The notes beneath the pieces are model-generated. The model had not been told where the DNA came from. It saw nothing but the letters and a program-made list of their open reading frames with translations, and ran no database searches. 64,000 bases of DNA from Patescibacteria group bacterium (lineage in GTDB: Bacteria > Patescibacteriota > UBA1384 > XYA2-FULL-43-10 > 1-14-0-10-43-13), in the NCBI GenBank assembly GCA_038078835.1, contig JBBTQI010000009.1:3714-67713 (forward strand), written 5' to 3'. This document shows positions 9,850-45,549 of this stretch, piece by piece. The translations under genes were made by a program, and so were the position numbers. Within the stretch, counting starts at the first letter, position 1. The number at the start of each line of letters is the position of its first letter.

Positions 9850-10398
9850 ATGAAACAGGAGAGGGTGCTATTATTAATTGACGGCAGTAATTTCTATTTC
9901 AAGTTGAAGAGCTTGGATTTGCAAGATCTGCTCTATTTTGATTTCCATCGTTTTGCACGTTATTTGGCAAGGTCAAGTAAGCTTATCAGATCCTGTTATT
10001 ATGTTGGGAGGATTAGGCAAGATGGAACCAAGAAAACAAGGATATTGTTCGATGGACAACAAAAATTAATCGGGCTTCTAAAGAAATGCAACTTTCATTA
10101 TAGCCTTGGTTATTTGCTTAAGAATGATGGTGTTTACCATGAGAAAGGTGTAGATGTTCAAATTGCTACCGATATTTTGGTTGCAGCATATGAAGATATT
10201 TGCGATCGAATAATTCTTGTCTCTTCTGACACGGATTTGTCTCCAGCGATCAAAAAGGCTCAAGAAAAAGAGAAAGCGGTCGAGTATATTGGCTTTTCTC
10301 ATCAGCCAAGCGTGGCTATGGTTTCGGTTTGTAAAGAGTCTAGACTTCTGTCCAGGGAGGATGCAGAGCAATTCATAAAAACAGATAGAAAAGGCTGA
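9850..10398 (+). CDS. NYN/LabA-like (PIN-like) domain protein
   Basis: 'LLLIDGSNFYF...GVDVQIATDIL...IILVSSDTDL' is the LabA/NYN pattern. Start chosen at 'MKQERV', downstream of the terminator that overlaps the longer ORF. Confidence 0.6.
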   Translation: MKQERVLLLIDGSNFYFKLKSLDLQDLLYFDFHRFARYLARSSKLIRSCYYVGRIRQDGTKKTRILFDGQQKLIGLLKKCNFHYSLGYLLKNDGVYHEKGVDVQIATDILVAAYEDICDRIILVSSDTDLSPAIKKAQEKEKAVEYIGFSHQPSVAMVSVCKESRLLSREDAEQFIKTDRKG

Positions 10399-10460
10399 AT
10401 GGCGATAATTAAGATGATTGGCACTGGCATATTGATACTTAATTTAATAAAAGGCGGCAG

Positions 10461-10863
10461 ATGGAGGAGCGGGTACAAAAAATTACAACAAAAGGATTGA
10501 TCTCAAAGGAAGGTAAAATATTAATGGTTCGCGACAAGATCGGAAATTGGGAATTACCTGGTGGTTGTATTAAATTTTGGCGAAGAACCTAAAAGCGCTC
10601 TTATTAGGGAATTAAAAGAAGAATTAAATGCCACCAAAATTACTGTTGATAAATTGGTTGACGTACTAAATATTTGCCAAGTCCAGCACGACAAGAGCTC
10701 CTATCAATATATTGTTTTAGTGTTTAATTGCGATCTCGATTTGTCCGAATTAAAACTGAGTGATGAGCACACGGAGTATGACTGGATAAATCCCGCTCAA
10801 TTTGCTGAATTACCTATGAAAAAACCGTACCGTGAATTTTTCGCACAGAATGCGCAGGGTTGA
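10461..10863 (+). pseudogene. NUDIX hydrolase with a +1 frameshift at a T4 run
   Basis: Frame 1 reads 'GNWELPGGCIKFWRRT*'. Frame 2 reads 'FGEEPKSALIRELKEELN...', which is the Nudix box GX5EX7REUXEEXGU split across frames. The shift is at 'tttt' at 10565-10568. Confidence 0.6.
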
Positions 10864-11105
10864 CATTAAGTGTGACTTAAGCTAGGATAAGGGTGAGTGG
10901 TGGATGCGTTTCCCCCCCTTGCGCGCCACCGCTCAAAAAAGATCCGAAATCCGATATTCTGCCGGAGCGGGCGATCGGACTTCGGATTTTTTTGTCCCCC
11001 AAAGACTTGACCCCGTTAGACATATTGTTAAATAACATCATGACCAATTATCAAGCACAGTGCTACATTAATAATTATCCAACTGTGGCGGTAATGTCTA
11101 ACGGG

Positions 11106-29906: not shown

Positions 29907-30140
29907 ATGAGACAATCGAATACAAAAATTCAACCAGGCATCTACCGCCACTACAAGGGCGGCACTTATCGTGTTTTGGGCGTAGCCAAACACTCCGAAA
30001 CACTTGAGGAGATGGTTATTTATGAAGCGCTCTACGATAATCCGATCTCTAAGCTTTGGGCCAGACCGTTATCGATGTTCCTTGATGAGGTTGAATGGCA
30101 GGGGAAGAAGGCAAAGAGATTCACTTTTGTGGTAAAATAA
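29907..30140 (+). CDS. DUF1653-domain protein
   Basis: 'GIYRHYKGGTYRVLGVAKHSETLEEMVIYEALY' is the DUF1653 signature. Confidence 0.6.
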   Translation: MRQSNTKIQPGIYRHYKGGTYRVLGVAKHSETLEEMVIYEALYDNPISKLWARPLSMFLDEVEWQGKKAKRFTFVVK

Positions 30141-30154
30141 GATAAAATGAGAGC

Positions 30155-30568
30155 ATGGAGATAAAAATTCCCCAAAATTCAATCCGGAAATTAAAATCCC
30201 TTGGCGTCGGAGTCGTTTATTTATTCGGTTCGGAGGCACAAGGAACGACTCACTTTGACAGCGATATTAATATCGGTGTCGTTTTTCTCGATCCCGCAAA
30301 ACTTGAGGATACCGGGCGAAGACTCAAACTTTACAATGAGCTGGATGATATTTTTACTGAGGCTATTCCGTACCGGCATATTGATACTGTCCTTTTGCAG
30401 ACTACATCTTTATCGCTTCAGTATGAGGCTATTCGGCCAGGTAAGGTTATTTATGAAACTTCCCCGGAATTCAGGGGTAACTACGAGGAAGCCTTGACAA
30501 AATTTTATCTTGATTTTAAGCCTCTTCTCGACATTCAACATCGAGCTGTGCTGGAAAGGATAAAATGA
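30155..30568 (+). CDS. Minimal nucleotidyltransferase (MntA-like antitoxin)
   Basis: 'VYLFGSEAQGTTHFDSDINIGV' (GS...DxD). Confidence 0.65.
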   Translation: MEIKIPQNSIRKLKSLGVGVVYLFGSEAQGTTHFDSDINIGVVFLDPAKLEDTGRRLKLYNELDDIFTEAIPYRHIDTVLLQTTSLSLQYEAIRPGKVIYETSPEFRGNYEEALTKFYLDFKPLLDIQHRAVLERIK

Positions 30569-30843
30569 TAAAAATACCGTTAAACCAAGAAATGTTAACA
30601 GAACGGCTGATTGATATAGAAAAGAGTATTGATGAATTAGAGAGAATGGGGACACTTACTAAGACTGAATTTTTAAGTTGGACACGGATCGCGAAGCTGC
30701 ATTGCGAGAGATTACCACTTTTAATTTAGAAGCAAGATACGACGATTACAAGGAACGTTTCTATGTTAAAGCAAATGAAAACTATACAAGTGAATGGAAT
30801 GAGAAAGCCAAGGAGTTGTACGAATGGCTCAGAGAGCTAATAT
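30565..30843 (+). pseudogene. Degraded HEPN-domain toxin remnant between two nucleotidyltransferase genes
   Basis: 30565-30717 'MIKIPLNQEMLTERLIDIEKSIDELERMGTLTKTEFLS...' resembles a HepT/HEPN N-terminus. A second frame ending at 30843, '...EARYDDYKERFYVKANENYTSEWNEKAKELYEWLREL', resembles a HEPN C-terminus. No intact ORF remains. Confidence 0.4.
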
Positions 30844-31153
30844 AAGTCCTAAAATTTACCAGCAAGCCAAGAAATACGAGGAGATCCTGAAAAAGAACGG
30901 TATACAAATAACCTCCATGTATGTTTTTGGTTCGTGGGTTAAGGGTACGGCGCATGCCTGGAGCGATATCGATATCGCTGTTGTGTCGCCTAATTTTAGC
31001 GAAGACAGGCAGGCCGAGAGAGTAAGATTAATGTACTTAAGCGAAAAAGTTGATAATGCCATTGAGCCTCACCCTTTCCGGCCGGAAGATTTTGACGATT
31101 TCTATTATCCACTGGCTAATGAAGTTAAGAAAACAGGTGTTAGGTTAGATTAA
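30824..31153 (+). CDS. Minimal nucleotidyltransferase (second MNT-family antitoxin-like gene)
   Basis: 'MYVFGSWVKGTAHAWSDIDIAVV'. Confidence 0.65.
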   Translation: MAQRANISPKIYQQAKKYEEILKKNGIQITSMYVFGSWVKGTAHAWSDIDIAVVSPNFSEDRQAERVRLMYLSEKVDNAIEPHPFRPEDFDDFYYPLANEVKKTGVRLD

Positions 31154-31285: not shown

Positions 31286-32287
31286 ATGGCAGACTTAACC
31301 GACAAAAAGCAACTAATTCGTTTTTTGCAACAGCACGGGCTTTATACCAAGAAGAAGCTGGGGCAGAATTTTTTAGTTGATAGGGCTGCGCTCGATAAGA
31401 TTGTCGATGCCGCCGGATTATTAAAAGACGATTGTGTTATCGAGATTGGGCCGGGGTTGGGGGTTTTGACAGAGGAGTTAGTGAAGAGAGCTGGAAAAGT
31501 AGTGGCGGTGGAGCTGGACGCGGCTCTGGCCGAGATTTTAGAAGTTAGATTTTCGAAGTTAGAAGAAAATCAAAAACCTCTAAAATCTAAAATCGATATT
31601 CTAAAATCTGATATTCTTCGTATCAACCTTAGTGAAACCACCAAGGATTGTTCGAGTTATAAAGTCGTTGCCAATATTCCTTACTACATCACATCGAAAA
31701 TCCTACGCTTTTTCTTGGAGGCGGAGAAGAAACCGGAATTGATAGTATTGCTAACGCAAAAAGAGGTAGCCGAAAGAATAGTAGCTAAGCCGGGCGAGAT
31801 GTCGATTCTGTCAGTCTCGGTTCAATACTACGGCCGGCCGGAGATTATAGATATTGTGCCTGAAACATCGTTCTTTCCCATGCCGGAAGTTGATAGTGCA
31901 ATATTAAAAATATCGAATATCCATACCCCCTCTAACTCCCCCTTACTAAGGGGGAGAAATCTAAATAATAGTTCCTTCCTTAAAATAGGGAATATTCCCT
32001 CTGATTCCTCCCCTAAGATAGGGGAGGTTAGGTGGGGTATGGAAAATACCGATGTAAAGGAATTTTTCCGCTGTATTCATATCGGTTTTTCGTCAAGGCG
32101 AAAAACATTACTAAATAACTTATCTGCCGGTTACCATCTGGATAAAAAAACAACGCTTGATATACTGGAAAAAGTGGGCTTGACGGAGAGGACAAGAGCG
32201 CAGGAACTATCAATCGGGAAATGGCAGGAGTTATGCCGCCAGTTGCCGGATTGGGACAGGAAAGACAATGAACGAAGCGGGAGCTAG
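31286..32287 (+). CDS. rsmA: 16S rRNA (adenine1518/1519-N6)-dimethyltransferase RsmA/KsgA, with in-frame repeat and palindrome insertions
   Basis: 'KKKLGQNFLVD...IEIGPGLGVLTEEL'. Insert 1 (31586-31625) is a 'tctaaaatc' repeat. Insert 2 (~31925-32045) carries three palindromes and encodes '...SPLLRGRN...SDSSPKIGEVRWGM'. Confidence 0.9.
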   Translation: MADLTDKKQLIRFLQQHGLYTKKKLGQNFLVDRAALDKIVDAAGLLKDDCVIEIGPGLGVLTEELVKRAGKVVAVELDAALAEILEVRFSKLEENQKPLKSKIDILKSDILRINLSETTKDCSSYKVVANIPYYITSKILRFFLEAEKKPELIVLLTQKEVAERIVAKPGEMSILSVSVQYYGRPEIIDIVPETSFFPMPEVDSAILKISNIHTPSNSPLLRGRNLNNSSFLKIGNIPSDSSPKIGEVRWGMENTDVKEFFRCIHIGFSSRRKTLLNNLSAGYHLDKKTTLDILEKVGLTERTRAQELSIGKWQELCRQLPDWDRKDNERSGS

Positions 32288-35057
32288 ACAAGTTGAAGTT
32301 GAATCAAGAACCGAAAGGCAACAATTTGCCGAGGTTTTAGGTTGGCAGCTTTTTGAGGATAAGGGGCAAAGCAAGAAGATATCACTCAATCGACAGAGCC
32401 GAGAAGTTGTCATTAATCCCGAATTATATCCCGATTCGATTCGAGCTCAAGTTGCCGCCGCTATGGCGGTGATGAAAGAATCTGAAGCTGAAAACATATT
32501 GCGCTTGGAGAGTAAAGATGAAATCAGGGCAATAGTTGAAGGCGACACTGTGGCGGTTGCTGATGTTATGTTGTGGAGTTCGGCCGGTAGACTTAAGGAG
32601 ACCGAAAAGCAGACTCTTGACGCACTCTTAAAAAGCCTATCCCAGACTGAAAGCTATACTCAAGAAGTGAAAAACGCTTGTTTTTCTTATATCGCCACCG
32701 GTTCGTATCCTAATTTGTCTCCAGAGTTAAAACCGTTTTTTGATAATTTACCGATCAGTCGTCAAACCGGTCAGAATCCGATCAGCGCCATTGCCGATAG
32801 TGCAGTCGCTACCGAACGCCGGCTTGAGTATTATGAAAGATTTATTCAGCCAATTATCCAACAAGCCAAAGAGTTGGATCGCCAATTAGAAGATACAATG
32901 GGTGAGTCTTTTAAGCCCTCCACCGACGACAGTGAAGGCGAACCGCTTGAGGAAAACGAGATATTACAAAGAGTTTCGCCTTTTTATGGCGGTTACTACC
33001 GTGAAAGAGTTCTTGATGCCGTTGATTGGGAAAATATGGAGATGGTTGCGACACCGCAACCGGCCGAGATAGACAATGGTGTTGAGATTGAAGAAGCAAC
33101 AGAAGTTAAACAGTATCTTTTCTTTGGTCTGGACGGAAAAAATCTGGCACAAGGGCCAGTATCAATTCCGTTATTGGCACGAGCCAGGATTATTAAAGAC
33201 AGTTTGAGCCCTATCGGTCTAGTTGTTAAAAGAGACACCAAGGGAATCCACTTTCTTTCTCTTGATCAAAAAACCGGCACTAATGCTCCGATTGGAGAGT
33301 ATCAATTAAAATTTATTCTTGAGCCTGGCATTTCTGACTTTATGGCCGCTTTGCCGACGGAGGAAGAAAGTTCGCGCGTTGCGCCGGACGTTCTATTCTC
33401 ACCTGAAACTGTCGAAAAACTTCTTGAGCTTGAACAATTAGAAATTTCCGACACAGCTAAAGCAAAAAGGATTGCTGGTCAAATCCGCCGGGAATTAACC
33501 TATGTCAACGACAGTCAAGTTGGCGAAGCTCTCAAAGTTGCCGGCCGGAATTACTTTAAAGAACTCGAAAGCACCGAGAAAGCGGATTGCGATGTTTCAA
33601 ACTTCTACTTGATCGCTCAACTGCGCTCGATCGGCATCCCCGCTCGCATGGTTAGAGGTTATTATCCGACCGATCAAAGATTCGGTTTTACTCCGCTGAA
33701 GGGGACGACCATGCATGCCTGGACGGAGTACTGGGATGCCGGCGCCAAGTGTTGGAAGATGATTGATGCAACTCCCCCTAAGAAAGAGGAGGAACAGGAA
33801 GAGGGAGAAAAACAGGAGGGAAGCGGTGGCAATCAAGCAATGATTGCACAGCAGGAAGAGGGCAAAATCAGTTTTGAGGGCGAAACAGACGACGAAGGTT
33901 TAGAACTTAATGATGAACAGCTTGAAAAATTCAAAGAGTTATTTAAGCAGAAGTATAACGAAATTACTGGCAGGAAAGATCAAACCGAACAGATTCGTCG
34001 AGATGATTTCCTTAAAGAGTACGGTATCACTCCCGAAGAGTGGGAGAAAATTGAACGATTTGTGAATTCAGTAGATCAGACCGTCATTCCTAAAGAGTAT
34101 ACGATTGGCCGGGCAGATGACTCAACTTTGGGCGAGGAGTGGGATAAGTTTTTCGAGATGTTTTTGGTTGCCTATCGTTTGCCGGCTAAAACCGAGAGAA
34201 CGCTAACCCGCCAGAGTTTAGGAGATGATTTAGTTGATCCCAGCTCAACCGTCACTGACCTTTTGGCCGGAAGCGATGATCCTTTCGGCTTTGAGCGGGT
34301 TAAGCGAGGCGAGCAGGAAATTAAACTGCCAATCGATTTTTCTAATGATTTCCTGCTTGATCTGACTTCCTCAATGGAAGCGGCCGATCGTTATGGCAAT
34401 ACGCTCAGAGAGCATCAAAAAAGATTTGTCATGGAGGCATTATATCATGGCTGGAAGATAAACCAGGGAATTAAAAATCATGAAGGTGAACTGCAGGGCG
34501 AACTCCCATTTATAAGCAACCATCTACTCTCGATTCATGGCAATAATCAATATCGGGAGCTGACATCGGGGCAGAAGGAAATTGCCATGACCCAGCTCTC
34601 AGAGGTAATGAAATTGCTTGATGAGACAGAGCAAGGCGCCGGCAATATGATTGGAGCGCTGGAGCAATATCGAAATGCTTTATTAGCCCAACCCGAAGTC
34701 ATACAAAAAATCCGATCCGGACAAATGGTCAAAACCCTAACCATATTGAGTGACGGCAATATGTGGTGCAGTGCTTGCGGCAAAGAATCCTGTTCGTATA
34801 GTTTAAGCACCGAGGAAGCGGCGAAATCAAAAAGATTGGTTGAAGAGTTGCGAAGAATAGGAGTGATCGTCAACGCCATCGGTTTTACCGGTAATTCACG
34901 TCATGTTATAGATATTTTTGACGACAAAACGGATCCGGGCAGAGCCATTGTGGCCGATAATGTCGAACAAGCAGTTGTAATGCACCACAAGCAACTGGTA
35001 AAATCTTGGCAGGTAATTGAAAAAGCGGCCGAATATCGACAGTTCAGCTTAGCGTAA
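32268..35057 (+). CDS. Large transglutaminase-like (Cys-His-Asp core) + von Willebrand factor A domain protein
   Basis: 929 aa. Its start overlaps the ksgA stop. 'CDVSNFYLIAQLRSIGIPARMVRGYY...TTMHAWTEYWDAGAKCWKMIDAT' is the transglutaminase-like core. The C-terminal 'LLDLTSSM...TILSDG' is vWA MIDAS-like. Confidence 0.6.
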   Translation: MNEAGARQVEVESRTERQQFAEVLGWQLFEDKGQSKKISLNRQSREVVINPELYPDSIRAQVAAAMAVMKESEAENILRLESKDEIRAIVEGDTVAVADVMLWSSAGRLKETEKQTLDALLKSLSQTESYTQEVKNACFSYIATGSYPNLSPELKPFFDNLPISRQTGQNPISAIADSAVATERRLEYYERFIQPIIQQAKELDRQLEDTMGESFKPSTDDSEGEPLEENEILQRVSPFYGGYYRERVLDAVDWENMEMVATPQPAEIDNGVEIEEATEVKQYLFFGLDGKNLAQGPVSIPLLARARIIKDSLSPIGLVVKRDTKGIHFLSLDQKTGTNAPIGEYQLKFILEPGISDFMAALPTEEESSRVAPDVLFSPETVEKLLELEQLEISDTAKAKRIAGQIRRELTYVNDSQVGEALKVAGRNYFKELESTEKADCDVSNFYLIAQLRSIGIPARMVRGYYPTDQRFGFTPLKGTTMHAWTEYWDAGAKCWKMIDATPPKKEEEQEEGEKQEGSGGNQAMIAQQEEGKISFEGETDDEGLELNDEQLEKFKELFKQKYNEITGRKDQTEQIRRDDFLKEYGITPEEWEKIERFVNSVDQTVIPKEYTIGRADDSTLGEEWDKFFEMFLVAYRLPAKTERTLTRQSLGDDLVDPSSTVTDLLAGSDDPFGFERVKRGEQEIKLPIDFSNDFLLDLTSSMEAADRYGNTLREHQKRFVMEALYHGWKINQGIKNHEGELQGELPFISNHLLSIHGNNQYRELTSGQKEIAMTQLSEVMKLLDETEQGAGNMIGALEQYRNALLAQPEVIQKIRSGQMVKTLTILSDGNMWCSACGKESCSYSLSTEEAAKSKRLVEELRRIGVIVNAIGFTGNSRHVIDIFDDKTDPGRAIVADNVEQAVVMHHKQLVKSWQVIEKAAEYRQFSLA

Positions 35058-35070
35058 CTTTGGATATAAC

Positions 35071-37914
35071 ATGAGTGAGACAGAAACACCAACAAATCTA
35101 GCCGGAACGCAGACTCAAGCAGAAACATTTGAGGCCAGTTCTGGTAACGCTGAAAAACCGGTTTATGAGCGCAGGCCGCACCATCCTCTTTCTGCAGCTC
35201 CCCGTTTAATCTTGCGGACTCTTCATCGTTATCGGACCGATATCGAAGCATCTAATAACCAGGCGGATTTAACTCAAGATCAAATTAGCGTCATGATTCT
35301 GGAGGCGATGGCCTTAGCCGATGAATTTCTGGTCCGTCCTACAACTGTTTCTGCCGAGGAGCAGCAAAGGAAAAGGATAGAGGAAAACGAACTCTTTCAT
35401 GGAAAAAGCGGAACAAAATTGGCGGATGCTTTTTTGCAACAGTTGGTGCAGGGAGAAGAGACAGCGTTGTCGGAAGGAGAAAAGGTTGGAACCGAGGAAA
35501 AGATAGAAAGAAACATCGCTGAAATCCTCTCTCACAAACAGGTTAGGAATGAAATTCTGGAAATATTCAAACGGGAATATTCCGTGCGAAAAAATACACA
35601 CGCCAAAATTTCGGAATTAGTTGGTATCGAAAATGCCATTGACACTGCTCGTGCCAGATACAGGCAACTTCAGAACGAACCGAGAGGTATTGATTCTGAG
35701 AGCACAGCTTTGCCAACCGGTATATTACAATCAAATCTCCATAAATACCTTGAGATCATCAGTCAACTTGAGCGAAGAATCAGATTAAAGGAGGCAAGGC
35801 TTAAACCTGAAGAATCAGGGTTGCTTGAAGCATCGCGCCTTCTCAAAATGAAGCGCCAGATGAGAGAGTACGGCTTTGCTATGACCGAATCGCGCCAAGC
35901 GCTTTTTGACCGGATCAGCGAACTGGCCAGCCAAGGATACAAAATATTCTTGGGCGGTCCGACCGGCACGGGCAAAACATCATTGGCTGTTTTTGCCATG
36001 CGCCAGATTATCGGTGACGAAAACAGGTTTGAAGTCGTCTCTTGGTCGCCCGAGACAACCACTCGGGATTTATTCGGCAAACCGATCATTAAAGCAACCG
36101 AGGAAGGCAATATCGAGAGTTCAATGCAAAAGGGGCCTTATGCCAGAATCTTAACCGGCGAAACAAGGGGTATTATCAACGATGAATTCACCGCCGGAAC
36201 GACAGCTTCCCAACTTTCATTGAAGAGAATTTATCAAGCGCACGCCGGCGAAGAGATTAATCTGCCTGGTTTTAACGGCACAGTCTTCACTAAGGAAAAT
36301 TACCTTGAGATTTCGACGGGCAATTTACGCTCCAAGCAACACAAAGAAAGAAGCGAGATGGACCCGGCCGTTGCCAGAGAATTCGTTTCTCTAAGCGTCC
36401 CCTTTATGAATAGCGAGGAGGCGGAGAAGGTAATGTTGTCCAGCCTTATTCATGAAACCGGCTTCTTGCCAATATCTAGAACCGAAGCAGAGATGGTAAA
36501 TCAACTTTGCCGAGCGGCCGAGTTTAGCCAAAAAGCGTTTGAAGACGAATTTACTCCCGAAGAAAAACAGAGCGATCTGTATAAGCAGATCGACCCAAGC
36601 GGTGCCGGGGTTCACTTAACTAAAACATTTTTCGATCCGGCCACGCTTTTTAGACTGGTCGACGGAATTTCCGGAAGACCATTCAAGGAAAATCTGCGGG
36701 TAAATTTAGAAAGGGAAATCAACGAGAGTCCTCATCTTAAAACTTTGCCGCACGAGAAAGAAGCTTTTCTTAAAATTCTTAAAGCTTTCGGTTTTAATCT
36801 TAAGGCAGGGAAGCCGGAAGATTTCTATAGACCAAAATCAACACCTTCGGGGAGTCAAAAACCGTATATACTTCCTTCAGAGCAAGGATTCTTATCAACT
36901 GTCGAAAAAATAACCGAGGATCAATTTGAGGGAGCCGGCCAAGCGGGAAGCTCTGGCGCGGAAAGAGTCGGAGACGGAGAGTGGCCATTTAAGGAAGAGG
37001 AGATGAGCCAGGAAAAAATCGCTGAAATTTACGATCGCTATGCCCGAGTTTATGAACAAGAGGGCATTGTCGAGAACGGCCGGATTGCTCCAAGCCTCAT
37101 TTCGACCGAGGTCAGACAACTCGGTTTGGATTTTGCTATGCCGACCAGAGAAGAGTTTCTGCAATTTATTGCCGAACATTCAGAGAAGGAGAAAAGGTTA
37201 ATTGGTCTTGGTTTGATTGAACCGGTCATTGTACCGGTAGCCGCCGACTTAGGCGAAGCTATTCCTGTAACGGCCAGTGAAGAGTACCGCTATAGCGGTT
37301 TGCTTGATATTGTCGCCGCCAAAATCAAAGAACTGGGAGAGGCCGGCCAGCTTCTTGGCAGTGACGGCACGCAAATTACTTGTAATCCCAAATGGCCGAT
37401 CTATGTTAATGATTTATACAAAAAGCTGCGTTTTATGCTCCAAAAAAAAGACGGCACTTTGCAAGGCGGGTTAACGCAAAAGACTTATATCGAAGAGCAG
37501 CAAAAAGACGGCCACCCCTTCCCGGGCTGGGCAATTTACTTTAAGGAAAGGGGCAATATATTGCCTCGAAACAGAGACAGCCAGCCGGATTTAACTGATA
37601 TGACGGCCGATAAAGAGTTATCAAAATATATCGAGGCACTCCATGATCCCAATAAATTAAATATGACCGGCTCCTCGGTTCATCTTGAACTCATGCTTCT
37701 CCTCGAGTCGCTTATCAGAGACAAGAAAGTAACGCGCGACTGGAACAATAATCAAGATGCCGGAGCGGTTCTTGGTGCCAACACCTTTGAAGGTTCCGGC
37801 CGCGTGCCGTTCTACGCCTGGCGTCGCGGCGCTGGCCAGTTAGACCTGAACGCCTACTATCCCGACAATCACTTCTCTGATGTTGTCGGTGTGCCTGCCG
37901 GTGAGATCAGCTGA
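35071..37914 (+). CDS. Large AAA+ ATPase (MoxR/AAA_5-like) with a hypervariable C-terminal region (DGR variable repeat)
   Basis: 947 aa. Walker A 'LGGPTGTGKTSLA' and Walker B 'GIINDEF'. The last ~38 codons are the variable-repeat partner of a template repeat 310 nt downstream. Confidence 0.6.
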   Translation: MSETETPTNLAGTQTQAETFEASSGNAEKPVYERRPHHPLSAAPRLILRTLHRYRTDIEASNNQADLTQDQISVMILEAMALADEFLVRPTTVSAEEQQRKRIEENELFHGKSGTKLADAFLQQLVQGEETALSEGEKVGTEEKIERNIAEILSHKQVRNEILEIFKREYSVRKNTHAKISELVGIENAIDTARARYRQLQNEPRGIDSESTALPTGILQSNLHKYLEIISQLERRIRLKEARLKPEESGLLEASRLLKMKRQMREYGFAMTESRQALFDRISELASQGYKIFLGGPTGTGKTSLAVFAMRQIIGDENRFEVVSWSPETTTRDLFGKPIIKATEEGNIESSMQKGPYARILTGETRGIINDEFTAGTTASQLSLKRIYQAHAGEEINLPGFNGTVFTKENYLEISTGNLRSKQHKERSEMDPAVAREFVSLSVPFMNSEEAEKVMLSSLIHETGFLPISRTEAEMVNQLCRAAEFSQKAFEDEFTPEEKQSDLYKQIDPSGAGVHLTKTFFDPATLFRLVDGISGRPFKENLRVNLEREINESPHLKTLPHEKEAFLKILKAFGFNLKAGKPEDFYRPKSTPSGSQKPYILPSEQGFLSTVEKITEDQFEGAGQAGSSGAERVGDGEWPFKEEEMSQEKIAEIYDRYARVYEQEGIVENGRIAPSLISTEVRQLGLDFAMPTREEFLQFIAEHSEKEKRLIGLGLIEPVIVPVAADLGEAIPVTASEEYRYSGLLDIVAAKIKELGEAGQLLGSDGTQITCNPKWPIYVNDLYKKLRFMLQKKDGTLQGGLTQKTYIEEQQKDGHPFPGWAIYFKERGNILPRNRDSQPDLTDMTADKELSKYIEALHDPNKLNMTGSSVHLELMLLLESLIRDKKVTRDWNNNQDAGAVLGANTFEGSGRVPFYAWRRGAGQLDLNAYYPDNHFSDVVGVPAGEIS
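37792..37905 (+). repeat. DGR variable repeat (VR1) at the 3' end of the AAA+ gene
   Basis: ~114 nt. It is ~88% identical to 38225-38328. 13 of 15 mismatches fall where the downstream copy has adenine (the downstream copy has AAC/AAT codons; here they read CGC/TTC/TAC/TAT/GCC). Confidence 0.65.
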
Positions 37915-38224
37915 CCTTGAGCTTTGATCTTTAAATTTTCTTTTGACTTTGTTTTTGAACTTTGGGATAATGTTATTGGCCAGCGAAACGATCCTGCCGC
38001 AAGACAAGGGCCGCTGGCATTTGTGCCGGCAAATGATCTGTTGCAAAGAGCCTTGTGCTTAGTTTGGACAGAGTGCCGCCACCGTCTAAAAAGTGTTTTC
38101 TCACGTTTGAGTCCTGCCTACCTGGCCTTACTGAAAGAGCCAGGTGTAACAAGCAAGCCAATGCATTGTTAGGAGTTTGCGAACTTTTAACACATCACGG
38201 ACGGACGGGATCAACTTGGGTTCC

Positions 38225-38328
38225 GGCAACGTGCCGAACTGCGAATGGCATCGCGGCGCTGGCCAGTTCAACCTGAACGCCAACAATCCCGACAATCACT
38301 ACTCTGATGTTGTCGGTGTGCCTGCCGG
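38225..38328 (+). repeat. DGR template repeat (TR1), the adenine-rich cognate of VR1
   Basis: It encodes 'GSGNVPNCEWHRGAGQFNLNANNPDNHYSDVVGVPAGE'. The VR encodes 'GSGRVPFYAWRRGAGQLDLNAYYPDNHFSDVVGVPAGE'. Confidence 0.65.
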
Positions 38329-38589
38329 TGAGGAGGCACTTTTTAATTGAGCGACTTGAGCCAGCCGCCAAGCTGTTGTCCTGTTTCACTTATGACTGCT
38401 TGGGCTTGGAATATTTTAGTTGTGTTAGCCAGGTTGAGTTCGAGTAGCAGTCTTAACTTAAGGGCGACAATCTCCAAATGACTTTGGGCGACGACAAGAT
38501 AGCCGGATTTTAGCGGCTTGAGATTTTTCCAACGGGGCGCCGATTGAAAAGACGAAACTGGTATCGCGCGATAAATCGTTTGTCAGAGA

Positions 38590-38773
38590 AGAATTATTCA
38601 AGCTACCACGGATTGGTTAAACAGCATTGCAATTACAAAAAAAGACGGTATTTCAACTGGCTCCTTGGATAAAAAACTAGTGCTTGGTATACTGGTATCG
38701 GTTGGATTGAATGACAAAACTCGGGCGCAGGAATTGCCGGTTAACAAGTGGGAGCAACTTTGCGAAAGATTTT
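38590..38773 (+). pseudogene. Diverged duplicate of the ksgA 3' end (remnant/displaced copy)
   Basis: It translates to '...SLDKKLVLGILVSVGLNDKTRAQELPVNKWEQLCERF*'. The ksgA C-terminus is 'HLDKKTTLDILEKVGLTERTRAQELSIGKWQELCRQL'. Nucleotide identity is roughly 60-65%. Confidence 0.5.
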
Positions 38774-38774
38774 A

Positions 38775-38892
38775 GAATCTAGATTTTGGATTTTAGAATT
38801 AATATTGAGAGCAGAATTAAATGATTAATTCCTCACTCTAGCTTCACTCTAAAATCTATATTCTAACATCTAAAATCTAACAGGTGAGGGGA
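38775..38892. repeat. MITE-like inverted-repeat element built from 'gattttagaat'/'ctaaaatct' units
   Basis: The left arm 'gattttagaatctagattttggattttagaatt' and right arm 'ctctaaaatctatattctaacatctaaaatctaac' are near reverse complements. The same unit occurs in-frame in ksgA (31586-31625). Confidence 0.45.
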
Positions 38893-38893
38893 A

Positions 38894-40366
38894 ATGGACT
38901 CAAATTTTTATAACTGGCAAGGAACCGGCGAAGAGAAAGAAACGAAACTCCTAACGCTCTCCGAATTTCGACGCGAGCTCGGTATTCCGCTGGTTCTGGC
39001 AAAAAAAATGATCGTCTGGGGAATTGTCGGGGCCTATACGACTGTTGACGGAACAATCAGAATTACCGAGGGGGAGCTGCTCAAGACAAGGGAACTGTTA
39101 AAGGATCCCCGGAAGAAGATTAAACTTTTTGCCCGCTCGCTCGGTCCCGGTTTTATTACCGGAGCCTCAGATGACGATCCCTCCGGCATTGCCACATATT
39201 CAGCCGTCGGAGCTAAATTTGGTTTCTCCCTGCTCTGGATGTGCCTTTGGACGACGCCGATGATGCTGGCAATTCAGGAGACATGCGCCCGGATCGGAGT
39301 GGTGGCCAACAAGGGCTTGGCCGGAGTCCTGCAGAAACACTACAGCCGCAAGATTGTAATATCGGTTGTAGCCTTACTAATTATCGCTAATACGGTCAAC
39401 ATCGGGGCTGACATCGGGGCGATGGCGGCATCTTTGCGATTGCTGGTTGATATTAACTTTTTTCTTGCCGCTATTATTTTTACCGCTCTAATAGTTGTTA
39501 TAGAGGTATTTGTGCCCTATTGCGCTTATGTCAAGGTCTTAAAATGGCTGACGGTCTTTATCTTTGCTTATATTGCCACGGGAATTATCGTCCGGCCCGA
39601 TTGGTTGGTGGTTGTCCGGGAAACCTTCACGCCCGAATTGCGTTTTGATGATGATTACATCTTTGCCGTTGTCGCTTTTTTGGGGACGACCATTACGCCC
39701 TACCTCTTTTTCTGGCAAACCTCGGAGGAGGTCGAGGAGAATATTCTGGCAAACGGCAATAAAGTGCTCACGCCCTACAAACGGACACAGCGTATCGCCC
39801 GGATGCGTACCGATGTTAAGGCCGGCATGATTCTCTCCAATCTGGTGGCCTTCTTTATTGTTTTAACAACCGCCTCGGTTCTTTTTAAGCACGGCGTTAC
39901 CAATATTGAATCGGCCGAGCAGGCGGCCGAAGCACTTAGGCCGTTGGCCGGAGAGTACGCCTATCTTCTCTTCGCCTTGGGAATTATCGGCACGGGTTTG
40001 TTGGCCGTACCGATACTGGCCGGCGCGGGCGCTTATGCTTTGAGTGAAGTAATGAATTGGCGCGAGGGCTTGGGCCAGAAGTTTTCTAAGGCCAGGGGCT
40101 TCTACATTATTATCATTCTTTCGATTATTGCCGGTATGGCACTCAACTTTATTGGCATAAACCCGATTGTCGCTCTCTACTACACCGCCTTCTTGAACGG
40201 GGTAATTGCCGTTCCTCTCCTGATCGTAATTATGATAGTCGGGAACGATCCAAAAATAATGGGTCAGGAAACTCATCCGAAGTGGGTTAAGTTTTTTGGC
40301 TGGTTGGCTGTGGTCTCAATGGCGCTGGCCGTGTTTTTGTCCCTTGGCCTTAATTTTGTGGTATAG
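38894..40366 (+). CDS. mntH: NRAMP-family divalent metal transporter with an N-terminal ~70-aa extension
   Basis: 'GPGFITGASDDDPSGIATYSAVGAKFGFSLLW' is an Nramp-like signature. There are ~11 TM segments. The N-terminal extension 'LSEFRRELGIPLVLAKKMIVWG' looks HTH-like. Confidence 0.7.
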   Translation: MDSNFYNWQGTGEEKETKLLTLSEFRRELGIPLVLAKKMIVWGIVGAYTTVDGTIRITEGELLKTRELLKDPRKKIKLFARSLGPGFITGASDDDPSGIATYSAVGAKFGFSLLWMCLWTTPMMLAIQETCARIGVVANKGLAGVLQKHYSRKIVISVVALLIIANTVNIGADIGAMAASLRLLVDINFFLAAIIFTALIVVIEVFVPYCAYVKVLKWLTVFIFAYIATGIIVRPDWLVVVRETFTPELRFDDDYIFAVVAFLGTTITPYLFFWQTSEEVEENILANGNKVLTPYKRTQRIARMRTDVKAGMILSNLVAFFIVLTTASVLFKHGVTNIESAEQAAEALRPLAGEYAYLLFALGIIGTGLLAVPILAGAGAYALSEVMNWREGLGQKFSKARGFYIIIILSIIAGMALNFIGINPIVALYYTAFLNGVIAVPLLIVIMIVGNDPKIMGQETHPKWVKFFGWLAVVSMALAVFLSLGLNFVV

Positions 40367-40391
40367 TACTCTTGTTAATGGAGAGTTATCA

Positions 40392-41189
40392 ATGAATGAG
40401 AGATCAGGCACACTTTTTATCGTTGCCACGCCGATCGGCAACTTGGAGGACATTACGCTTCGGGCGATTCGGGTCTTGCAGGATGTTGACCTGATTGCTT
40501 GCGAGGATACGCGAGTGACGCGGCATCTCTTAGATCACTTTGAGATCAAAACACCAACAGTGTCATATTTTCAGCACTCTAAATTATCGAAGATCGACTA
40601 CCTGATATCGGAGCTGCGGTCGGGCAAAGATATCGCCTTAATTTCCGATGCCGGCACACCGGCAATCAGCGATCCGGGACAGGAGTTAATTGCTAACATT
40701 CGTCAGGCTTGTCATTCTGAACCCTTCGGCCTTACTCAGGGTAAACTCCGTGAAGAATCTAGGTCGCCAAAGGCGACCGTAAATAAGAGTGCGGCTTCGC
40801 CTAGATCCTTCGCTAACGCTCAGGATGACATCAGGGTGGTGCCCATCCCCGGCCCGTCGGCTTTGACGGCGGCGGCGAGTGTCTCCGGTATGATCGAGAA
40901 AGAGTTTTACTTTGCCGGGTTTTTGCCCAAGAAAAAGGGCCGGCAGACAGAATTAAAGAAACTATCGAAGCTCGATGTGCCGATTATAATGTACGAATCA
41001 ACTTTAAGGTTAGAGCGAACGCTTGCCGATATTAAAACGTATTTTGATGACAAGACCGAAGTCTTTGTTGCTCGAGAAATGACCAAAATGTTTGAAGAGT
41101 ATTGGGGCGGGAAGATAGATGAAGTCTTAAACGATCTCAAGAGTCACAAGTTAAAAGGTGAGATTGTGTTGGTGGTCAAGAAATTATAA
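40392..41189 (+). CDS. rsmI: 16S rRNA (cytidine1402-2'-O)-methyltransferase RsmI, with a ~40-aa in-frame insertion
   Basis: 'GTLFIVATPIGNLEDITLRAIRVLQDVDLIACEDTR...' and 'VVPIPGPSALTAA'. The insertion 'CHSEPFGLTQGKLREESRSPKATVNKSAASPRSFANAQDDIR' at ~40710-40835 contains the hairpin 'ctaggtcgccaaaggcgacc'. Confidence 0.8.
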   Translation: MNERSGTLFIVATPIGNLEDITLRAIRVLQDVDLIACEDTRVTRHLLDHFEIKTPTVSYFQHSKLSKIDYLISELRSGKDIALISDAGTPAISDPGQELIANIRQACHSEPFGLTQGKLREESRSPKATVNKSAASPRSFANAQDDIRVVPIPGPSALTAAASVSGMIEKEFYFAGFLPKKKGRQTELKKLSKLDVPIIMYESTLRLERTLADIKTYFDDKTEVFVAREMTKMFEEYWGGKIDEVLNDLKSHKLKGEIVLVVKKL

Positions 41190-42444: not shown

Positions 42445-42561
42445 TATATTGACCAGTTGGCTCATGTGAGCCTGATTGCCTCGCCTTGCACCGTGCTTAG
42501 CGCTGGTGTAAGGCGAGCATCGTTCGTACGAGGAGGCGTACCTCTCAAACGCAGAAATGGG

Positions 42562-43246
42562 ATGACGACGATGGCAAAGACCATTGATCGCGTTCTCGAC
42601 GAAGTCAAGCCGAAGGCCAGCCAGATCGGAGATCTGGCGATGCACGGCGCTCTTAAGAGTGGCTTGTCCGCAGAAGACCTCCAGCGCGTCATCGAACGCG
42701 GCGGGGAGTTCCAGGACGCCATCCAGCCGATCCTTTGGCGCCTCGGTGCCGCTGTAACCCTGGTGGACTCCGATCTGCTTCAGCCGGTCACGTTCGTGCC
42801 GGTCGAGGGCACCGAGTCCTTCAAGGCTGGCGAGCACTTCAAGCGGGGCACCACCGACAGTGTAGTCATAGGCTACGTCGGATCGAACTTCGAGGCCGCG
42901 TTCGGGGGCAAGGTGGAGACCAACATCCCGAAGGCAAACTTGCGCATCCACCGGCTTCGCCAGAGCAGCATCGACGCCCCGATCATTGCTGGGCTCGGCG
43001 GCGAGGCGCAGGTCGAAAACCAGCCTGGCCCACCTCTGGGAGCTGCTGAAGCTCCAGGGCCACGGGCAGGAAGGTGTCCTGCTCACCAACGGGTGGGCGA
43101 ACATCTTCTACATCCGCGACTCGAACGGGATCCTCTGGGCGGTCTACTGCTGCTGGTACTCCGGCGCCGGCTTCTGGTGCGTCGAAGCCAATCCGGTCAC
43201 GTATCCGTTCAGGTGGGGCGATGGCTGCCGGGTCGTCTCCCGCTGA
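42562..43246 (+). CDS. GC-rich hypothetical protein carrying a DGR variable repeat at its C-terminus (probable frameshift at an A4 run, 43016-43019)
   Basis: Frame 1 is protein-like up to '...GGEAQVEN'. Frame 2 is protein-like from 'SLAHLWELLKLQGHGQEGVLLTNGWANIFYIRDSNGILWAVYCCWYSGAGFWCVEANPVTYPFRWGDGCRVVSR*'. Deleting one A merges them. The start codon is uncertain. Confidence 0.5.
43135..43243 (+). repeat. DGR variable repeat (VR2)
   Basis: 109 nt, collinear with 43610-43718. All 17 nucleotide differences fall where the downstream copy has adenine: TAC/TGC/TTC/GGC/TAT/CGG here versus AAC/GAC/AAT/CAG downstream. Confidence 0.75.
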
Positions 43247-43298
43247 TTCTTAGCGCTTTGAGCCTAGTGCTCTGGCGCTCTGAATCTTTAACTCTCTC

Positions 43299-43315
43299 CG
43301 CCGCGAAGCGGCGGT
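43299..43315 (+). promoter_or_regulatory. GC-rich hairpin downstream of VR2 (candidate DGR homing-enhancing stem-loop)
   Basis: 'ccgccgc-gaa-gcggcgg' is a 7-bp GC stem with a GAA loop, ~55 nt after the VR. It is analogous in form to the hairpin that follows Bordetella phage DGR VRs. Confidence 0.4.
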
Positions 43316-43609
43316 CGACACAGGTGGCTCTTCCCAGCTCTCTTTGGAGGGTAGCGGAAGGGCCACCTTTTCTGTTAATGTGAGTGCAGGAATCGTAAAG
43401 CGCAACGGCTACGGCTTTTGCCTACGTTCTTAAGTCTTTATTCTCCCAGAATTGCTTCGGGCACGCCTTAAGCAAGAGCGGTTACTAAGGATTTTCAAAA
43501 AATGAAATGAATCGGTGCTAACTATTGGCAGACTTTTAGGTCTCAAATAAAATACAGCAAAGCGAAGCAATTTGTTTGCGGTGATTACAGAGGATAGTTA
43601 GTACATTAT

Positions 43610-43718
43610 CTGGGCGGTCAACTGCAACTGGAACTCCGACGCCGGCAACTGGAACGTCGAAGCCAATCCGGTCACGAATCCGAACAGGTGGAACGATGGC
43701 AACCAGGTCGTCTCCCGC
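43610..43718 (+). repeat. DGR template repeat (TR2), adenine/AAC-rich
   Basis: It encodes 'WAVNCNWNSDAGNWNVEANPVTNPNRWNDGNQVVSR'. The VR encodes 'WAVYCCWYSGAGFWCVEANPVTYPFRWGDGCRVVSR'. Confidence 0.75.
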
Positions 43719-43980
43719 AACTCATTTCTTTTCTTCCACTCCGGTGGAAGTTTTTGATATCAAACCTTTTCGCCAACCCCCAACCATTCTGCCAATCTCG
43801 TTAAACTGTTCAGAGACGGCAATGTATTTTTTGTTATCCAGCGCTTTGATTTCCCAAGCAACCAGTCAATCATATTCGGGTTTGCTGGGGCATGGCAATG
43901 GCTATAAGATTGGGTAAAAAATTGATTTGAGGGTAAAGCGCTTATTGTAGATTAAGCCTGATTTTGATAGGATTTCATTA

Positions 43981-45549
43981 ATGAGCAAGAAATATTATAT
44001 TACAACCCCAATTTATTACGTTAATGATGTCCCGCACGTCGGTCATGCTTACACCACTATTGCGGCGGATGTTTTGGCGCGGTATCACCGGGAAAAAGGC
44101 GAGGAGGTCTTTTTTTTGACCGGCACGGACGAGCATGGGGCCAAGATTGCCGAGGCGGCGGAGAAGGCCGGCAAAGAGCCTAAGGCTTTTGTCGATGAAC
44201 TGGCGCCGAAGTTCCAAGAGGTTTGGAAGAAATTAAATATTAATTATTCCGAATTTTTTAGAACGACCAATCCCGAGCACGAGAGGCTGGTGCAGGAGTT
44301 TATCGGGCGGGTTAATAAGGCCGGTTACATCGAGAAACGGCAATACACCGGACTCTATTGCATTGCCTGCGAGCGGTATTATCGCGAGGATGAGTTAATC
44401 GACGGCAAGTGTCCAGATCACAAGCGCGAGCTCGTCAGGCAATCAGAGGAAAATTATTTCTTTCTTTTATCCAAATTTGGAGATCAATTACTGGAAAAGA
44501 TCGAATCTGGTGAGATGGAGATCGGGCCGGAGACGCGCAAGAATGAGATCGTCAGCAAGATAAAACTGGGTCTGGAGGATATCAGTATTTCCAGAGCTAA
44601 TGTTAAGTGGGGCATTCCTTTTCCCGGAGACGAATCTCAAACTATTTATGTCTGGTTCGATGCACTGCTAAATTATTGGACGGCGACGAAGATCTACGGC
44701 CAAGATAAGGGGGACAGTCCCCAGGCTGCAAAGGGGACAGTCCCCGGACCGGAATGGCCGGCGGATTTGCACTTGATGGCCAAGGACATTTTGTGGTTTC
44801 ATGCCGTGATTTGGCCGGCGATGCTCCTTGCGGCCGGTGAGGCTGTGCCTAAAAAGGTCTTTGCTCACGGCTTCTTCACTATCAACGGTCAAAAGATGAG
44901 CAAGACACTGGGTAATGTCATTAACCCCAACGAAGTCGTCGACAAATTCGGCGCCGATGCCGTTCGCTACGCCCTTCTGCGCGAATTCCCCTTTGGCGAA
45001 GACGGCGATATCTCGGTGGAGAAGATCGGCGAGCGCCATAAAGAGCTGGCGGATACCTTGGGGAATTTACTTCAACGTACTGTCGTGATGATTAATAAAT
45101 ATCAAGTCCATACCACCTCTAGCCCCTCCTACCCTAGGAGGGGAAATGGGGAGATTGACCCAACCCATTCTTCCCTCCCTAAGATAGGTAGTCTATCTTC
45201 CGATTCCTCCCCTAAGATAGGGGAGGCTAGGTGGGGTATGAGTATTAACTTAGATATTGAATCATCGCAATTTTCTCGCGCTTTGGAGAAGATCATGACT
45301 TTTGCGGCGAAGCAGAACCAATTTATTAATGAGAAAGCGCCGTGGGTTTTAGCCAAAGAAGGCAAAACGAATGAAATTAAAGAGGTTTTAAGTGCAGTTT
45401 ATGGTAACCTTATGATAATATCGGAACTTTTCATACCCTTCATGCCCGAGACGGCTAAAAAGATGAAACAGCAGTTGGAATCATTGAAACCCGAGCCGTT
45501 ATTCCCCAGAATCGACTTAGATAAAACACAGATGATGAAAGCAGATTAA
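43981..45549 (+). CDS. metG: Methionyl-tRNA synthetase (short form), with a ~45-aa in-frame palindromic insertion
   Basis: 'PIYYVNDVPHVGHAYTT' (HIGH) and 'KMSKTLGNV' (KMSKS). The insertion at ~45115-45245 encodes 'SSPSYPRRGNGEIDPTHSSLPKIGSLSSDSSPKIGEARWGM'. Its 41 nt at 45201-45241 are nearly identical to ksgA 32000-32040. Confidence 0.9.
   Translation: MSKKYYITTPIYYVNDVPHVGHAYTTIAADVLARYHREKGEEVFFLTGTDEHGAKIAEAAEKAGKEPKAFVDELAPKFQEVWKKLNINYSEFFRTTNPEHERLVQEFIGRVNKAGYIEKRQYTGLYCIACERYYREDELIDGKCPDHKRELVRQSEENYFFLLSKFGDQLLEKIESGEMEIGPETRKNEIVSKIKLGLEDISISRANVKWGIPFPGDESQTIYVWFDALLNYWTATKIYGQDKGDSPQAAKGTVPGPEWPADLHLMAKDILWFHAVIWPAMLLAAGEAVPKKVFAHGFFTINGQKMSKTLGNVINPNEVVDKFGADAVRYALLREFPFGEDGDISVEKIGERHKELADTLGNLLQRTVVMINKYQVHTTSSPSYPRRGNGEIDPTHSSLPKIGSLSSDSSPKIGEARWGMSINLDIESSQFSRALEKIMTFAAKQNQFINEKAPWVLAKEGKTNEIKEVLSAVYGNLMIISELFIPFMPETAKKMKQQLESLKPEPLFPRIDLDKTQMMKAD

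Follow-up and report, generated by a model that had tools for sequence, protein, structure and literature searches.

Probable entry of foreign DNA into the 3' end of ksgA in a Patescibacteria group bacterium, with a MoxR-vWA gene pair and the remains of a diversity-generating retroelement

We analyzed a 64-kb stretch of DNA from a Patescibacteria group bacterium (assembly GCA_038078835.1, contig JBBTQI010000009.1), hereafter called the window. In it, the ksgA (rsmA) gene is followed by genes for a 929-aa protein with transglutaminase-like and vWA domains and for a 947-aa MoxR-class AAA+ ATPase, then by the remains of a diversity-generating retroelement (DGR) and by a second, displaced copy of the ksgA end. 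Our proposal, to which we give a probability of about 0.6, is that 6.5 kb of foreign DNA (~32135–38661) sits in the native ksgA at codon 284, where it brought a substitute gene tail together with a truncated DGR cassette and displaced the resident tail, and that the two proteins would act as sensor and effector. The window covers about one-third of a 179-kb contig (ENA ERZ1292638 NODE_18). The 929-aa protein was encoded identically on contigs of five runs/assemblies, from groundwater metagenomes with 'Hain_H43' in their sample names. These five contigs differed from the window by 0–2 single-nucleotide polymorphisms over up to 22.8 kb and spanned all the junctions discussed below; therefore, the junctions are not assembly artefacts. 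A first-pass annotation of this DNA had proposed the same gene order, and all of its elements were present, with small coordinate corrections only.

The two ends of ksgA and the empty sites of relatives

The ksgA gene (31286–32287; Pfam RrnaAD, E = 1.2e-51; genes, tails and DGR repeats are on the plus strand unless stated) combines two ancestries. Its body (codons 1–283, 31286–32134) was closest to the relatives L094 and L016. In contrast, its tail (32135–32287), made of the conserved codons 284–317 and of a further 16 codons overlapping the 929-aa gene, showed 81% nucleotide identity with L093 vs 68% with L094, and 19 of the 20 aa of the distal tail were those of L093. Informative sites gave the same picture. 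In codons 110–283, the intact gene agreed with L094 at 67 sites and with L093 at 37, and the tail reversed this preference, with 20 sites shared with L093 and 6 with L094 (Fisher p = 2.8e-4 for L093 vs L094, and p = 0.01 with L016 in the comparison). The switch of ancestry lay at codon 284, that is, where homology with the displaced tail starts.

The displaced tail consists of 36 codons and a stop (38662–38775, 'SLDKK...WEQLCERF*'). It matched ksgA at 50% identity over 44 aa (BLASTP, E = 6e-12) and scored 29.1 bits with a ksgA-family hidden Markov model (HMM), as compared with a maximum of 3.6 bits among 300 shuffled sequences. The copy is thus real but shorter than first annotated, since a start at 38590 had been given and the same HMM found no ksgA likeness in 38590–38661. 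We also considered a longer remnant reaching back to 38579 through a frameshift and a stop, which would have represented an element-borne 'P arm', but the HMM scores against shuffles gave no ksgA signal 5' of 38662. The filler immediately upstream (38518–38661), which we take as the right end of the inserted DNA, contained neither an open reading frame (ORF) nor a ksgA-HMM signal.

Over the last 34 codons, nucleotide identities grouped the intact gene with L093 (81%) and the displaced fragment with L094 and L016 (70%–74% within the group; fragment to L094 72%, to L016 70%), whereas the two copies in the window were the least alike (63%). The intact ksgA is a mosaic, with a body of the L094/L016 type and a tail of the L093 type, the displaced fragment being of the body's type. 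A possibility was that no foreign tail had ever come in, and that an insertion had duplicated 36 resident codons, through a long target or a local tandem duplication, the downstream copy then decaying. The two tails are indeed recognizably homologous, and the fragment has no function that would conserve it. Yet the identities listed above are impossible for sister copies, the fragment has kept its frame open over 36 codons down to an 'RF*' end like that of L094, and the intact gene changes ancestry just where the duplication starts. Because each copy is closer to other genomes than to its partner, we consider duplication in place highly improbable; the inserted DNA (~32135–38661) would therefore have brought its own ksgA tail. 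The opposite assignment, with the intact tail as native and the fragment as foreign, had been suggested by the ~80% protein identity of the intact tail with L016, and it was reversed by the closer relatives L093 and L094 and by the nucleotide informative sites.

The genomic context agreed with this assignment. The gene 3' of the fragment encodes an Nramp transporter (38894–40366; Pfam Nramp, E = 9e-83), lies outside the island and is, by synteny, the ancestral 3' neighbor of ksgA. In five relatives (L094, L093, L039, L040, and L041) the site is empty, with Nramp 22–105 nt 3' of ksgA; the Nramp of L094 is 83% identical to that of the window. The displaced fragment lies 120 nt 5' of Nramp and shares its 'RF*' end with the ksgA of L094. 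Since ksgA leads directly to Nramp in the five relatives, the fragment occupies the position of the native gene end. The synteny comparison suggested in the first-pass annotation thus supported its view of the fragment, and in none of the five did the two large genes follow ksgA as a conserved core arrangement. A further relative, L016, has the order uvrD-G5-DUF1653-polB-ksgA ... Nramp-rsmI-VTT-metG, and its ksgA-Nramp gap holds an insertion of 2.7 kb that differs from that of the window. No ksgA fragment adjoined the module in the homologous loci of other genomes.

Both tail copies carry a promoter-like motif with an upstream TG, TGGATA-16 nt-TATACT, at 32139–32166 and 38666–38693; it fits only weakly (9/12). 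The Nramp promoter may lie in the native copy, and retention of the fragment would then be explained. On the other flank, a DUF1653 gene and two nucleotidyltransferase genes (Pol-beta/MNT-type) lie between the G5-domain gene and ksgA (29907–31153). In the more distant relatives L039–L041, G5 adjoins ksgA directly. The extra genes present in the window and not in these relatives suggest that both flanks of ksgA are prone to insertion.

Proposed entry of the inserted DNA

According to our proposal, foreign DNA would have entered ksgA at codon 284, its left end replacing the last 34 codons by a functional equivalent. This substitute tail would run straight into the two-gene module, and the native tail would have been pushed downstream, still beside Nramp. 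The cargo would be the left part of a Patescibacteria-type DGR cassette, ending in the middle of avd, with the reverse transcriptase (RT) lost. Entry might have occurred through a single crossover of a circularized fragment, or through homology-facilitated illegitimate recombination, with DNA of a related lineage in which ksgA and the module were already linked.

The first-pass annotation had instead seen an integrative element carrying a replacement 3' end. The replacement tail was borne out by the mosaic and the empty sites, and a displaced native end, a foreign end, and an empty site were all found, as for such elements. The integrase and the identical attachment (att) cores were not. Indeed, no recombinase domain was detected in the island or in the flanking 10 kb, nor beside the complete homologous cassettes of L006, a Berkelbacteria metagenome-assembled genome (MAG), and L096. 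There was no clear att core either; the only shared stretch was a 14-nt sequence (13/14 match) in conserved codons, GCTTG[A/G]TATACTGG, at 32155–32168 and 38682–38695. 

The main rival is a site-specific element targeting the ksgA 3' end, whose attP would carry the gene end and whose integrase would either act in trans or have disappeared along with RT when a deletion truncated avd. This is a serious possibility, although we consider it clearly less probable than recombination. The locus has the classic B-O-P' ... P-O-B' structure, the duplication starts at the same codon in both copies, the 14-nt sequence is common to both tails, and a second DGR-derived insertion, with a 5'-truncated RT, is found between ksgA and Nramp in L016. 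However, the 14-mer belongs to conserved codons and is shared by L093, L094, and L016, so that it need not be a recombination core. The absence of an integrase extends to the complete cassettes of L006 and L096, and the module occurs in unrelated contexts elsewhere. Moreover, the insertion point in L016 is not the same, being located after the stop codon and inside the spacer palindrome.

L016 provided one more argument. At 7387–8087 of this contig, the first ~31 ksgA codons are duplicated (72 nt, 75% identical) around a 608-nt insertion, which is the mirror image of the 3' case in the window. The insertion holds two small ORFs that, on inspection of the sequence, resemble a toxin-antitoxin pair of the Phd/RelE type. 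That a similar gene-end duplication borders a plain toxin-antitoxin pair points to a general recombination route. Taken with the absence of a recombinase and the location of the 14-mer in conserved codons, it led us to favor recombination with DNA of a related lineage, and to see its chief rival in a site-specific element that has since degraded.

In the ksgA-Nramp gap of L016 (9060–11730), we noticed an NYN-domain gene, a 171-aa ORF with an HExxH motif, an RT gene, and a nucleotidyltransferase gene followed by a HEPN-like stretch (motif only). The RT (10295–11026) is of DGR type and 5'-truncated; it is 49% identical to the RT of L006 over residues 95–320 and keeps the LGNLTSQ and YADD motifs. 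It looks like a second, independent DGR-derived insertion at the ksgA-Nramp junction and, with an insertion point other than that of the window, suggests that one hot spot was hit twice. One could go further and imagine that DGR cassettes of this clade land preferentially at this junction, where the window has the left half of a cassette and L016 a 5'-truncated RT of the same family, that the cassette or its retroelement machinery moves by replacing gene ends without a conventional integrase, and that orphan units of template repeat and avd antisense might be usable by a distant RT. We regard this as quite improbable.

The gene pair, the DGR remains, and neighboring features

The gene for the 929-aa protein (32268–35057) starts with an ATG 20 nt 5' of the ksgA stop, and co-transcription of the two genes is plausible from this overlap. 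The protein has a Transglut_core domain at residues 394–497 (E = 7e-11; 33447–33758), which was matched in all eight members of the family. Residues C441 (33588), H483 (33714), and D500 (33765) are invariant in eight homologues, so that the protein shows the Cys-His-Asp triad of transglutaminase-like thiol peptidases, and TgpA was the top Foldseek match for the central, transglutaminase-like part. An acidic linker connects this core with the vWA domain (~34329–35012). The Pfam VWA model gave no match in the 929-aa protein. The vWA assignment came from the C-terminal 230 residues, in which a motif resembling a metal-ion-dependent adhesion site (MIDAS), D698xT700xS702...D829G830 (D698 at 34359), is invariant, and from Foldseek matches to many solved vWA domains, among them NorD, TEM8, CMG2, and integrin I domains, at a target TM of at most 0.71; the AlphaFold model had a pLDDT of 59 overall and of 55–80 in the vWA part. 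The same region aligned with a Pfam-VWA protein of L014 (tblastn, E = 2e-5).

The gene for the 947-aa ATPase (35071–37914) follows after 13 nt; the order had been given correctly, with a gap of 14. AAA_5 was called just at threshold (22.2 bits for a cut-off of 22). The Walker A motif GPTGTGKT (35956–35979), the Walker B residue E372 (36184), and R427 are invariant, and R436 is nearly so. The AAA core (~35878–36900) was modelled with a pLDDT of about 80–90, and its top Foldseek matches were the MoxR ATPases NorQ and CbbQ (E = 6e-10, TM 0.70–0.79). These motifs, the arginines, and the structural neighbors place the protein in the MoxR class. Its N-terminal two-thirds are ~60% identical to relatives; for the last 328 residues, no homologue was found among the fetched sequences, which suggests that the C-terminus is modular as well as mutagenized. 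Collectively, the transglutaminase, vWA, and MoxR calls of the first-pass annotation were right. The Pfam searches it had advised supported two of them (Transglut_core and, at threshold, AAA_5) and were silent for the VWA model. Neither large protein has a hydrophobic or transmembrane segment or a signal-like N-terminus, and both are probably cytoplasmic.

An exhaustive phmmer search returned 29 cluster representatives at E < 1e-30 and 107 at E < 1e-10; the family is thus modest in size, not tiny. NCBIfam gave nothing significant for the pair. A phage origin was considered and rejected, as neither protein family has relatives on viral contigs in IMG/VR. Homologues of the 929-aa protein always adjoin an AAA protein of 790–950 aa, and this two-gene unit is conserved in eight loci with no third conserved gene. 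The complete order was seen in L006 and L096: transglutaminase-vWA gene, AAA gene with a DGR variable repeat (VR), gene for a small second VR protein, template repeat (TR), bAvd on the opposite strand, and RT. In L014, the protein encoded ahead of the 809-aa AAA_5 protein is a plain VWA protein of 638 aa; the AAA_5 protein has a VR, and TR, bAvd, and RT follow. VRs occur in the ATPase or adjacent paralogues of L006, L009, L014, L015, and L096. The L013 pair has neither a VR/TR pair nor DGR genes. In L097 (1–12874), a distant homologue of the transglutaminase-vWA protein (36% identical) lies eight unknown genes 3' of a 925-aa AAA_5 protein, and no DGR genes were called; this pair may belong to a larger uncharacterized operon. 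Upstream neighbors elsewhere differed from genome to genome and were AbiEii (twice), an unknown 79-aa ORF beside an opposite-strand sigma-70 gene, tyrS, and small ORFs. The linkage with ksgA is unique to this genome and is not a property of the module.

The DGR signature lies at the end of the ATPase gene. VR1 (37792–37905) corresponds to the last 38 codons of the gene, a C-terminal position typical of DGR targets, and TR1 (38219–38332) is located 427 nt downstream. They differ at 13 positions, 11 of which are template adenines (chance ~1e-6), which is the adenine bias expected for a DGR TR/VR pair. A promoter-like site is present 5' of TR1 (37943–37971). On the minus strand (38352–38517), we identified an avd pseudogene reduced to its last ~55 codons, without a start codon and ending in '...ISETGQQLGGWLKSLN*'; it was found by tblastn with the Avd of L006 and L096 (E = 0.03 and 0.009, respectively) and by nucleotide conservation with the avd 3' ends of L006 and L014. 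No RT was found in the 64-kb window by scanning the ORFs of ≥120 aa with Pfam RVT_1, by searching six frames for YxDD in RT context, or by tblastn with three DGR RTs. An RT is present in the homologous cassettes of L006, L014, and L096.

The first-pass annotation had described the ATPase C-terminus as diversifying. This was not sustained: the window lacks RT, avd is truncated, and VR1 is identical in the consensus sequences of five contigs from five runs. The invariance of VR1 makes the DGR look dead, the two non-adenine differences between VR1 and TR1 suggest drift, and with RT gone VR1 would be frozen. Contig ends falling within the VR in Logan assemblies (L003/L004 and L007/L008) might have been taken for population diversity. 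However, they coincide with a 31-nt block shared by VR1 and TR1, and VR1 is identical everywhere; hence, we attribute them to the assembly graph.

A second degenerate DGR locus lies 5 kb downstream (42457–43856), with VR2 at 43134–43243 and TR2 at 43609–43718, all 17 of 17 differences being at template adenines. A frameshift divides its target gene into an N-terminal part in the frame of 42457 and a VR part that forms the ORF 42986–43246. Only the last ~30 codons of avd remain (43767–43856, minus strand) and there is no RT. The locus is absent from L016, in which VTT is directly followed by metG.

A possibility was that the DGR is alive, with TR1, and TR2 likewise, plus the stretch antisense to avd forming satellite template units served in trans by an RT and Avd encoded elsewhere in the genome. 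Both orphan TRs keep an avd 3' end immediately downstream, TR1 has a good promoter-like site, VR2/TR2 show adenine-specific differences only and no drift, and the window is about one-third of the 179-kb contig. Nevertheless, we consider this distinctly unlikely. Independent assemblies of what is a near-clonal population all have the same VR1 and VR2, VR1 and TR1 differ at two non-adenine positions, the target gene of VR2 is frameshifted, and the conservation 3' of the TRs is explained by avd coding.

Several palindromic elements were noticed in and around ksgA. The inverted repeat at 38767–38878, MITE-like according to the first-pass annotation, has imperfect 54-nt arms (74% complementary), folds as a long RNA hairpin (z-score −4.3), and is part of the native ksgA-Nramp spacer; a riboswitch was rejected there, with no Rfam match. 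This 'GATTTTAGA' element has two copies in the window, and no target-site duplications were identified. The second, shorter copy is in frame in the N-terminal domain of ksgA (31533–31612), at a place where L016 and L093 have larger, different insertions. Another, multi-palindromic element of ~110 nt is found in frame in ksgA between its two domains (31932–32041) and in metG (45131–45240); the two copies have a 39-nt core differing at one base and resemble the in-frame Rickettsia palindromic elements. The rsmI-like methyltransferase gene (40296–41189) matches TP_methylase in two stretches and carries an internal insertion of ~45 residues, 'CHSEPFGLTQGKLREESRSP...AQDDIRV', which looks like a translated repeat element. 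Finally, a very large gene of ~150-nt repeats with the motif WxWNGxxWxxIGGD (at least 15 copies) occupies 59500–64000 and runs past the end of the window.

Possible function and known systems

NorQ and CbbQ work with the vWA proteins NorD and CbbO, and VR hypermutation typically affects ligand-recognition proteins rather than dedicated chaperones. By analogy, the ATPase would presumably form a MoxR-type ring, and its C-terminal domain, once diversified by the DGR, would bind a cytoplasmic ligand. ATP-driven remodelling would then act on the MIDAS/vWA domain of the partner, as NorQ does on NorD and CbbQ on CbbO, and would thereby control the transglutaminase-like domain, a thiol peptidase or cross-linking domain that is the likely effector. 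Comparable to DGR-linked MoxR-vWA systems, the whole could serve as an immune-like or conflict sensor whose specificity is now single and fixed. The defence role, the sensor and effector parts, and the contact between the two proteins are all inferred by analogy.

Alternatively, the pair might be a housekeeping MoxR-vWA chaperone, involved in maturation or metal insertion like NorQD, CbbQO, or RavA-ViaA, the link with ksgA reflecting a role in ribosome or protein maturation. Structurally, NorQ/NorD and CbbQ come closest, an operon of eight genes without a DGR lies between the members of a distant homologous pair (L097), one pair has neither VR nor DGR (L013), and no PADLOC match was obtained. 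In contrast, the pair is missing from five syntenic relatives and is therefore dispensable, its distribution is patchy and its contexts variable, with AbiEii as a neighbor twice, the ATPase or adjacent paralogues carry VRs in five loci (L006, L009, L014, L015, and L096), and the ksgA linkage is found in this genome only. This role is unlikely in our view.

Several points weigh against our own proposal, beginning with the lack of a recombinase and of a clear att core. The mosaic test relied on 102 nt of tail and three relatives, with a breakpoint picked post hoc, and L093, the closest relative of the tail, has an empty site, so that no donor linking ksgA with a transglutaminase gene was found. 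An RT may exist elsewhere in the genome, 64 of the 179 kb of the contig having been examined, and the clean adenine mismatches of VR2/TR2 may reflect recent DGR activity. As for function, the VR-bearing part of the ATPase (residues 614–947) was modelled with a pLDDT <50 and has no Pfam match and no homologue. PADLOC returned nothing for the transglutaminase-vWA protein and one sub-threshold P-loop match for the ATPase (E = 0.008), and the eight-gene operon of L097, without a DGR, could point to a non-immune role.

DGR-linked MoxR-vWA ternary systems, in which transglutaminase-like peptidases are rare effectors, have been described (Kaur, Burroughs, Iyer, Aravind 2020, PMC7159879), and in such conflict systems the ATPase is the signal transducer (Dore et al. 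2024, PMC10907252). Like these VMAP systems, the window pair has a MoxR AAA+ ATPase together with a vWA co-chaperone, a ligand-binding domain diversified by a DGR, and an effector of the peptidase kind, and is predicted to sense in the cytoplasm. It differs in having two genes instead of three and no VMAP protein, so that it does not belong to them, and in its fusions: the variable domain is joined to the ATPase here and to the vWA protein there, and here it is the vWA protein that carries the peptidase-like domain as a fusion. The hosts are also different, a small-genome candidate phyla radiation (CPR) bacterium here and multicellular bacteria there, and the RT clade would presumably be that of CPR.

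AAA-fused proteins (AAA-CLec) are the commonest DGR target of CPR, as related from Paul et al. 2017 in PMC10907252. In the terms of that summary, the window resembles them by its Patescibacteria host, by an N-terminal AAA with a C-terminal variable region, and by the TR next to opposite-strand avd and RT in the complete relatives (L006, L014, and L096). The window locus differs from them by the absence of RT, a truncated avd, and a VR domain without a CLec assignment, as well as by a conserved upstream transglutaminase-vWA or vWA partner, which we did not find described in the literature searched. More generally, that search returned no paper linking CPR AAA-type DGR targets to a vWA or transglutaminase partner.

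The NorQ-NorD and CbbQ-CbbO pairs gave the best structural matches for the ATPase core and the vWA domain, and likewise have adjacent genes and a MIDAS. In contrast to them, the window pair has no known client, and it has a transglutaminase core, a long coiled-coil N-terminus, and a hypervariable C-terminus; moreover, it is dispensable and horizontally mobile. As for the insertion, genomic islands at gene 3' ends, whether of the tRNA/tmRNA type or targeting protein genes, likewise leave an intact gene with a foreign tail, have the native tail displaced to their far end, and correspond to an empty site in relatives. The window island differs from them in that it has no integrase and no clear identical core, and in that its cargo is a truncated DGR cassette.

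Collectively, the locus is a two-gene CPR version, now decayed, of the DGR-linked MoxR-vWA systems already known. It brings no new principle. The link between the commonest type of Patescibacteria DGR target, AAA-fused, and a vWA or transglutaminase-vWA partner means that these targets can be read as two-component MoxR-vWA machines that include their own thiol-peptidase or cross-linking effector, and not as lone binders, which provides a concrete and testable model for what DGR targets do inside the cells of ultra-small symbionts. In addition, the locus illustrates cleanly, from nature, how a cassette would arrive, through a substitute tail in an essential gene that has empty sites in relatives, and then decay, with RT and avd lost and the targets kept frozen. 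Its value thus lies in this clear evolutionary reconstruction and in the extension of known systems to the CPR.

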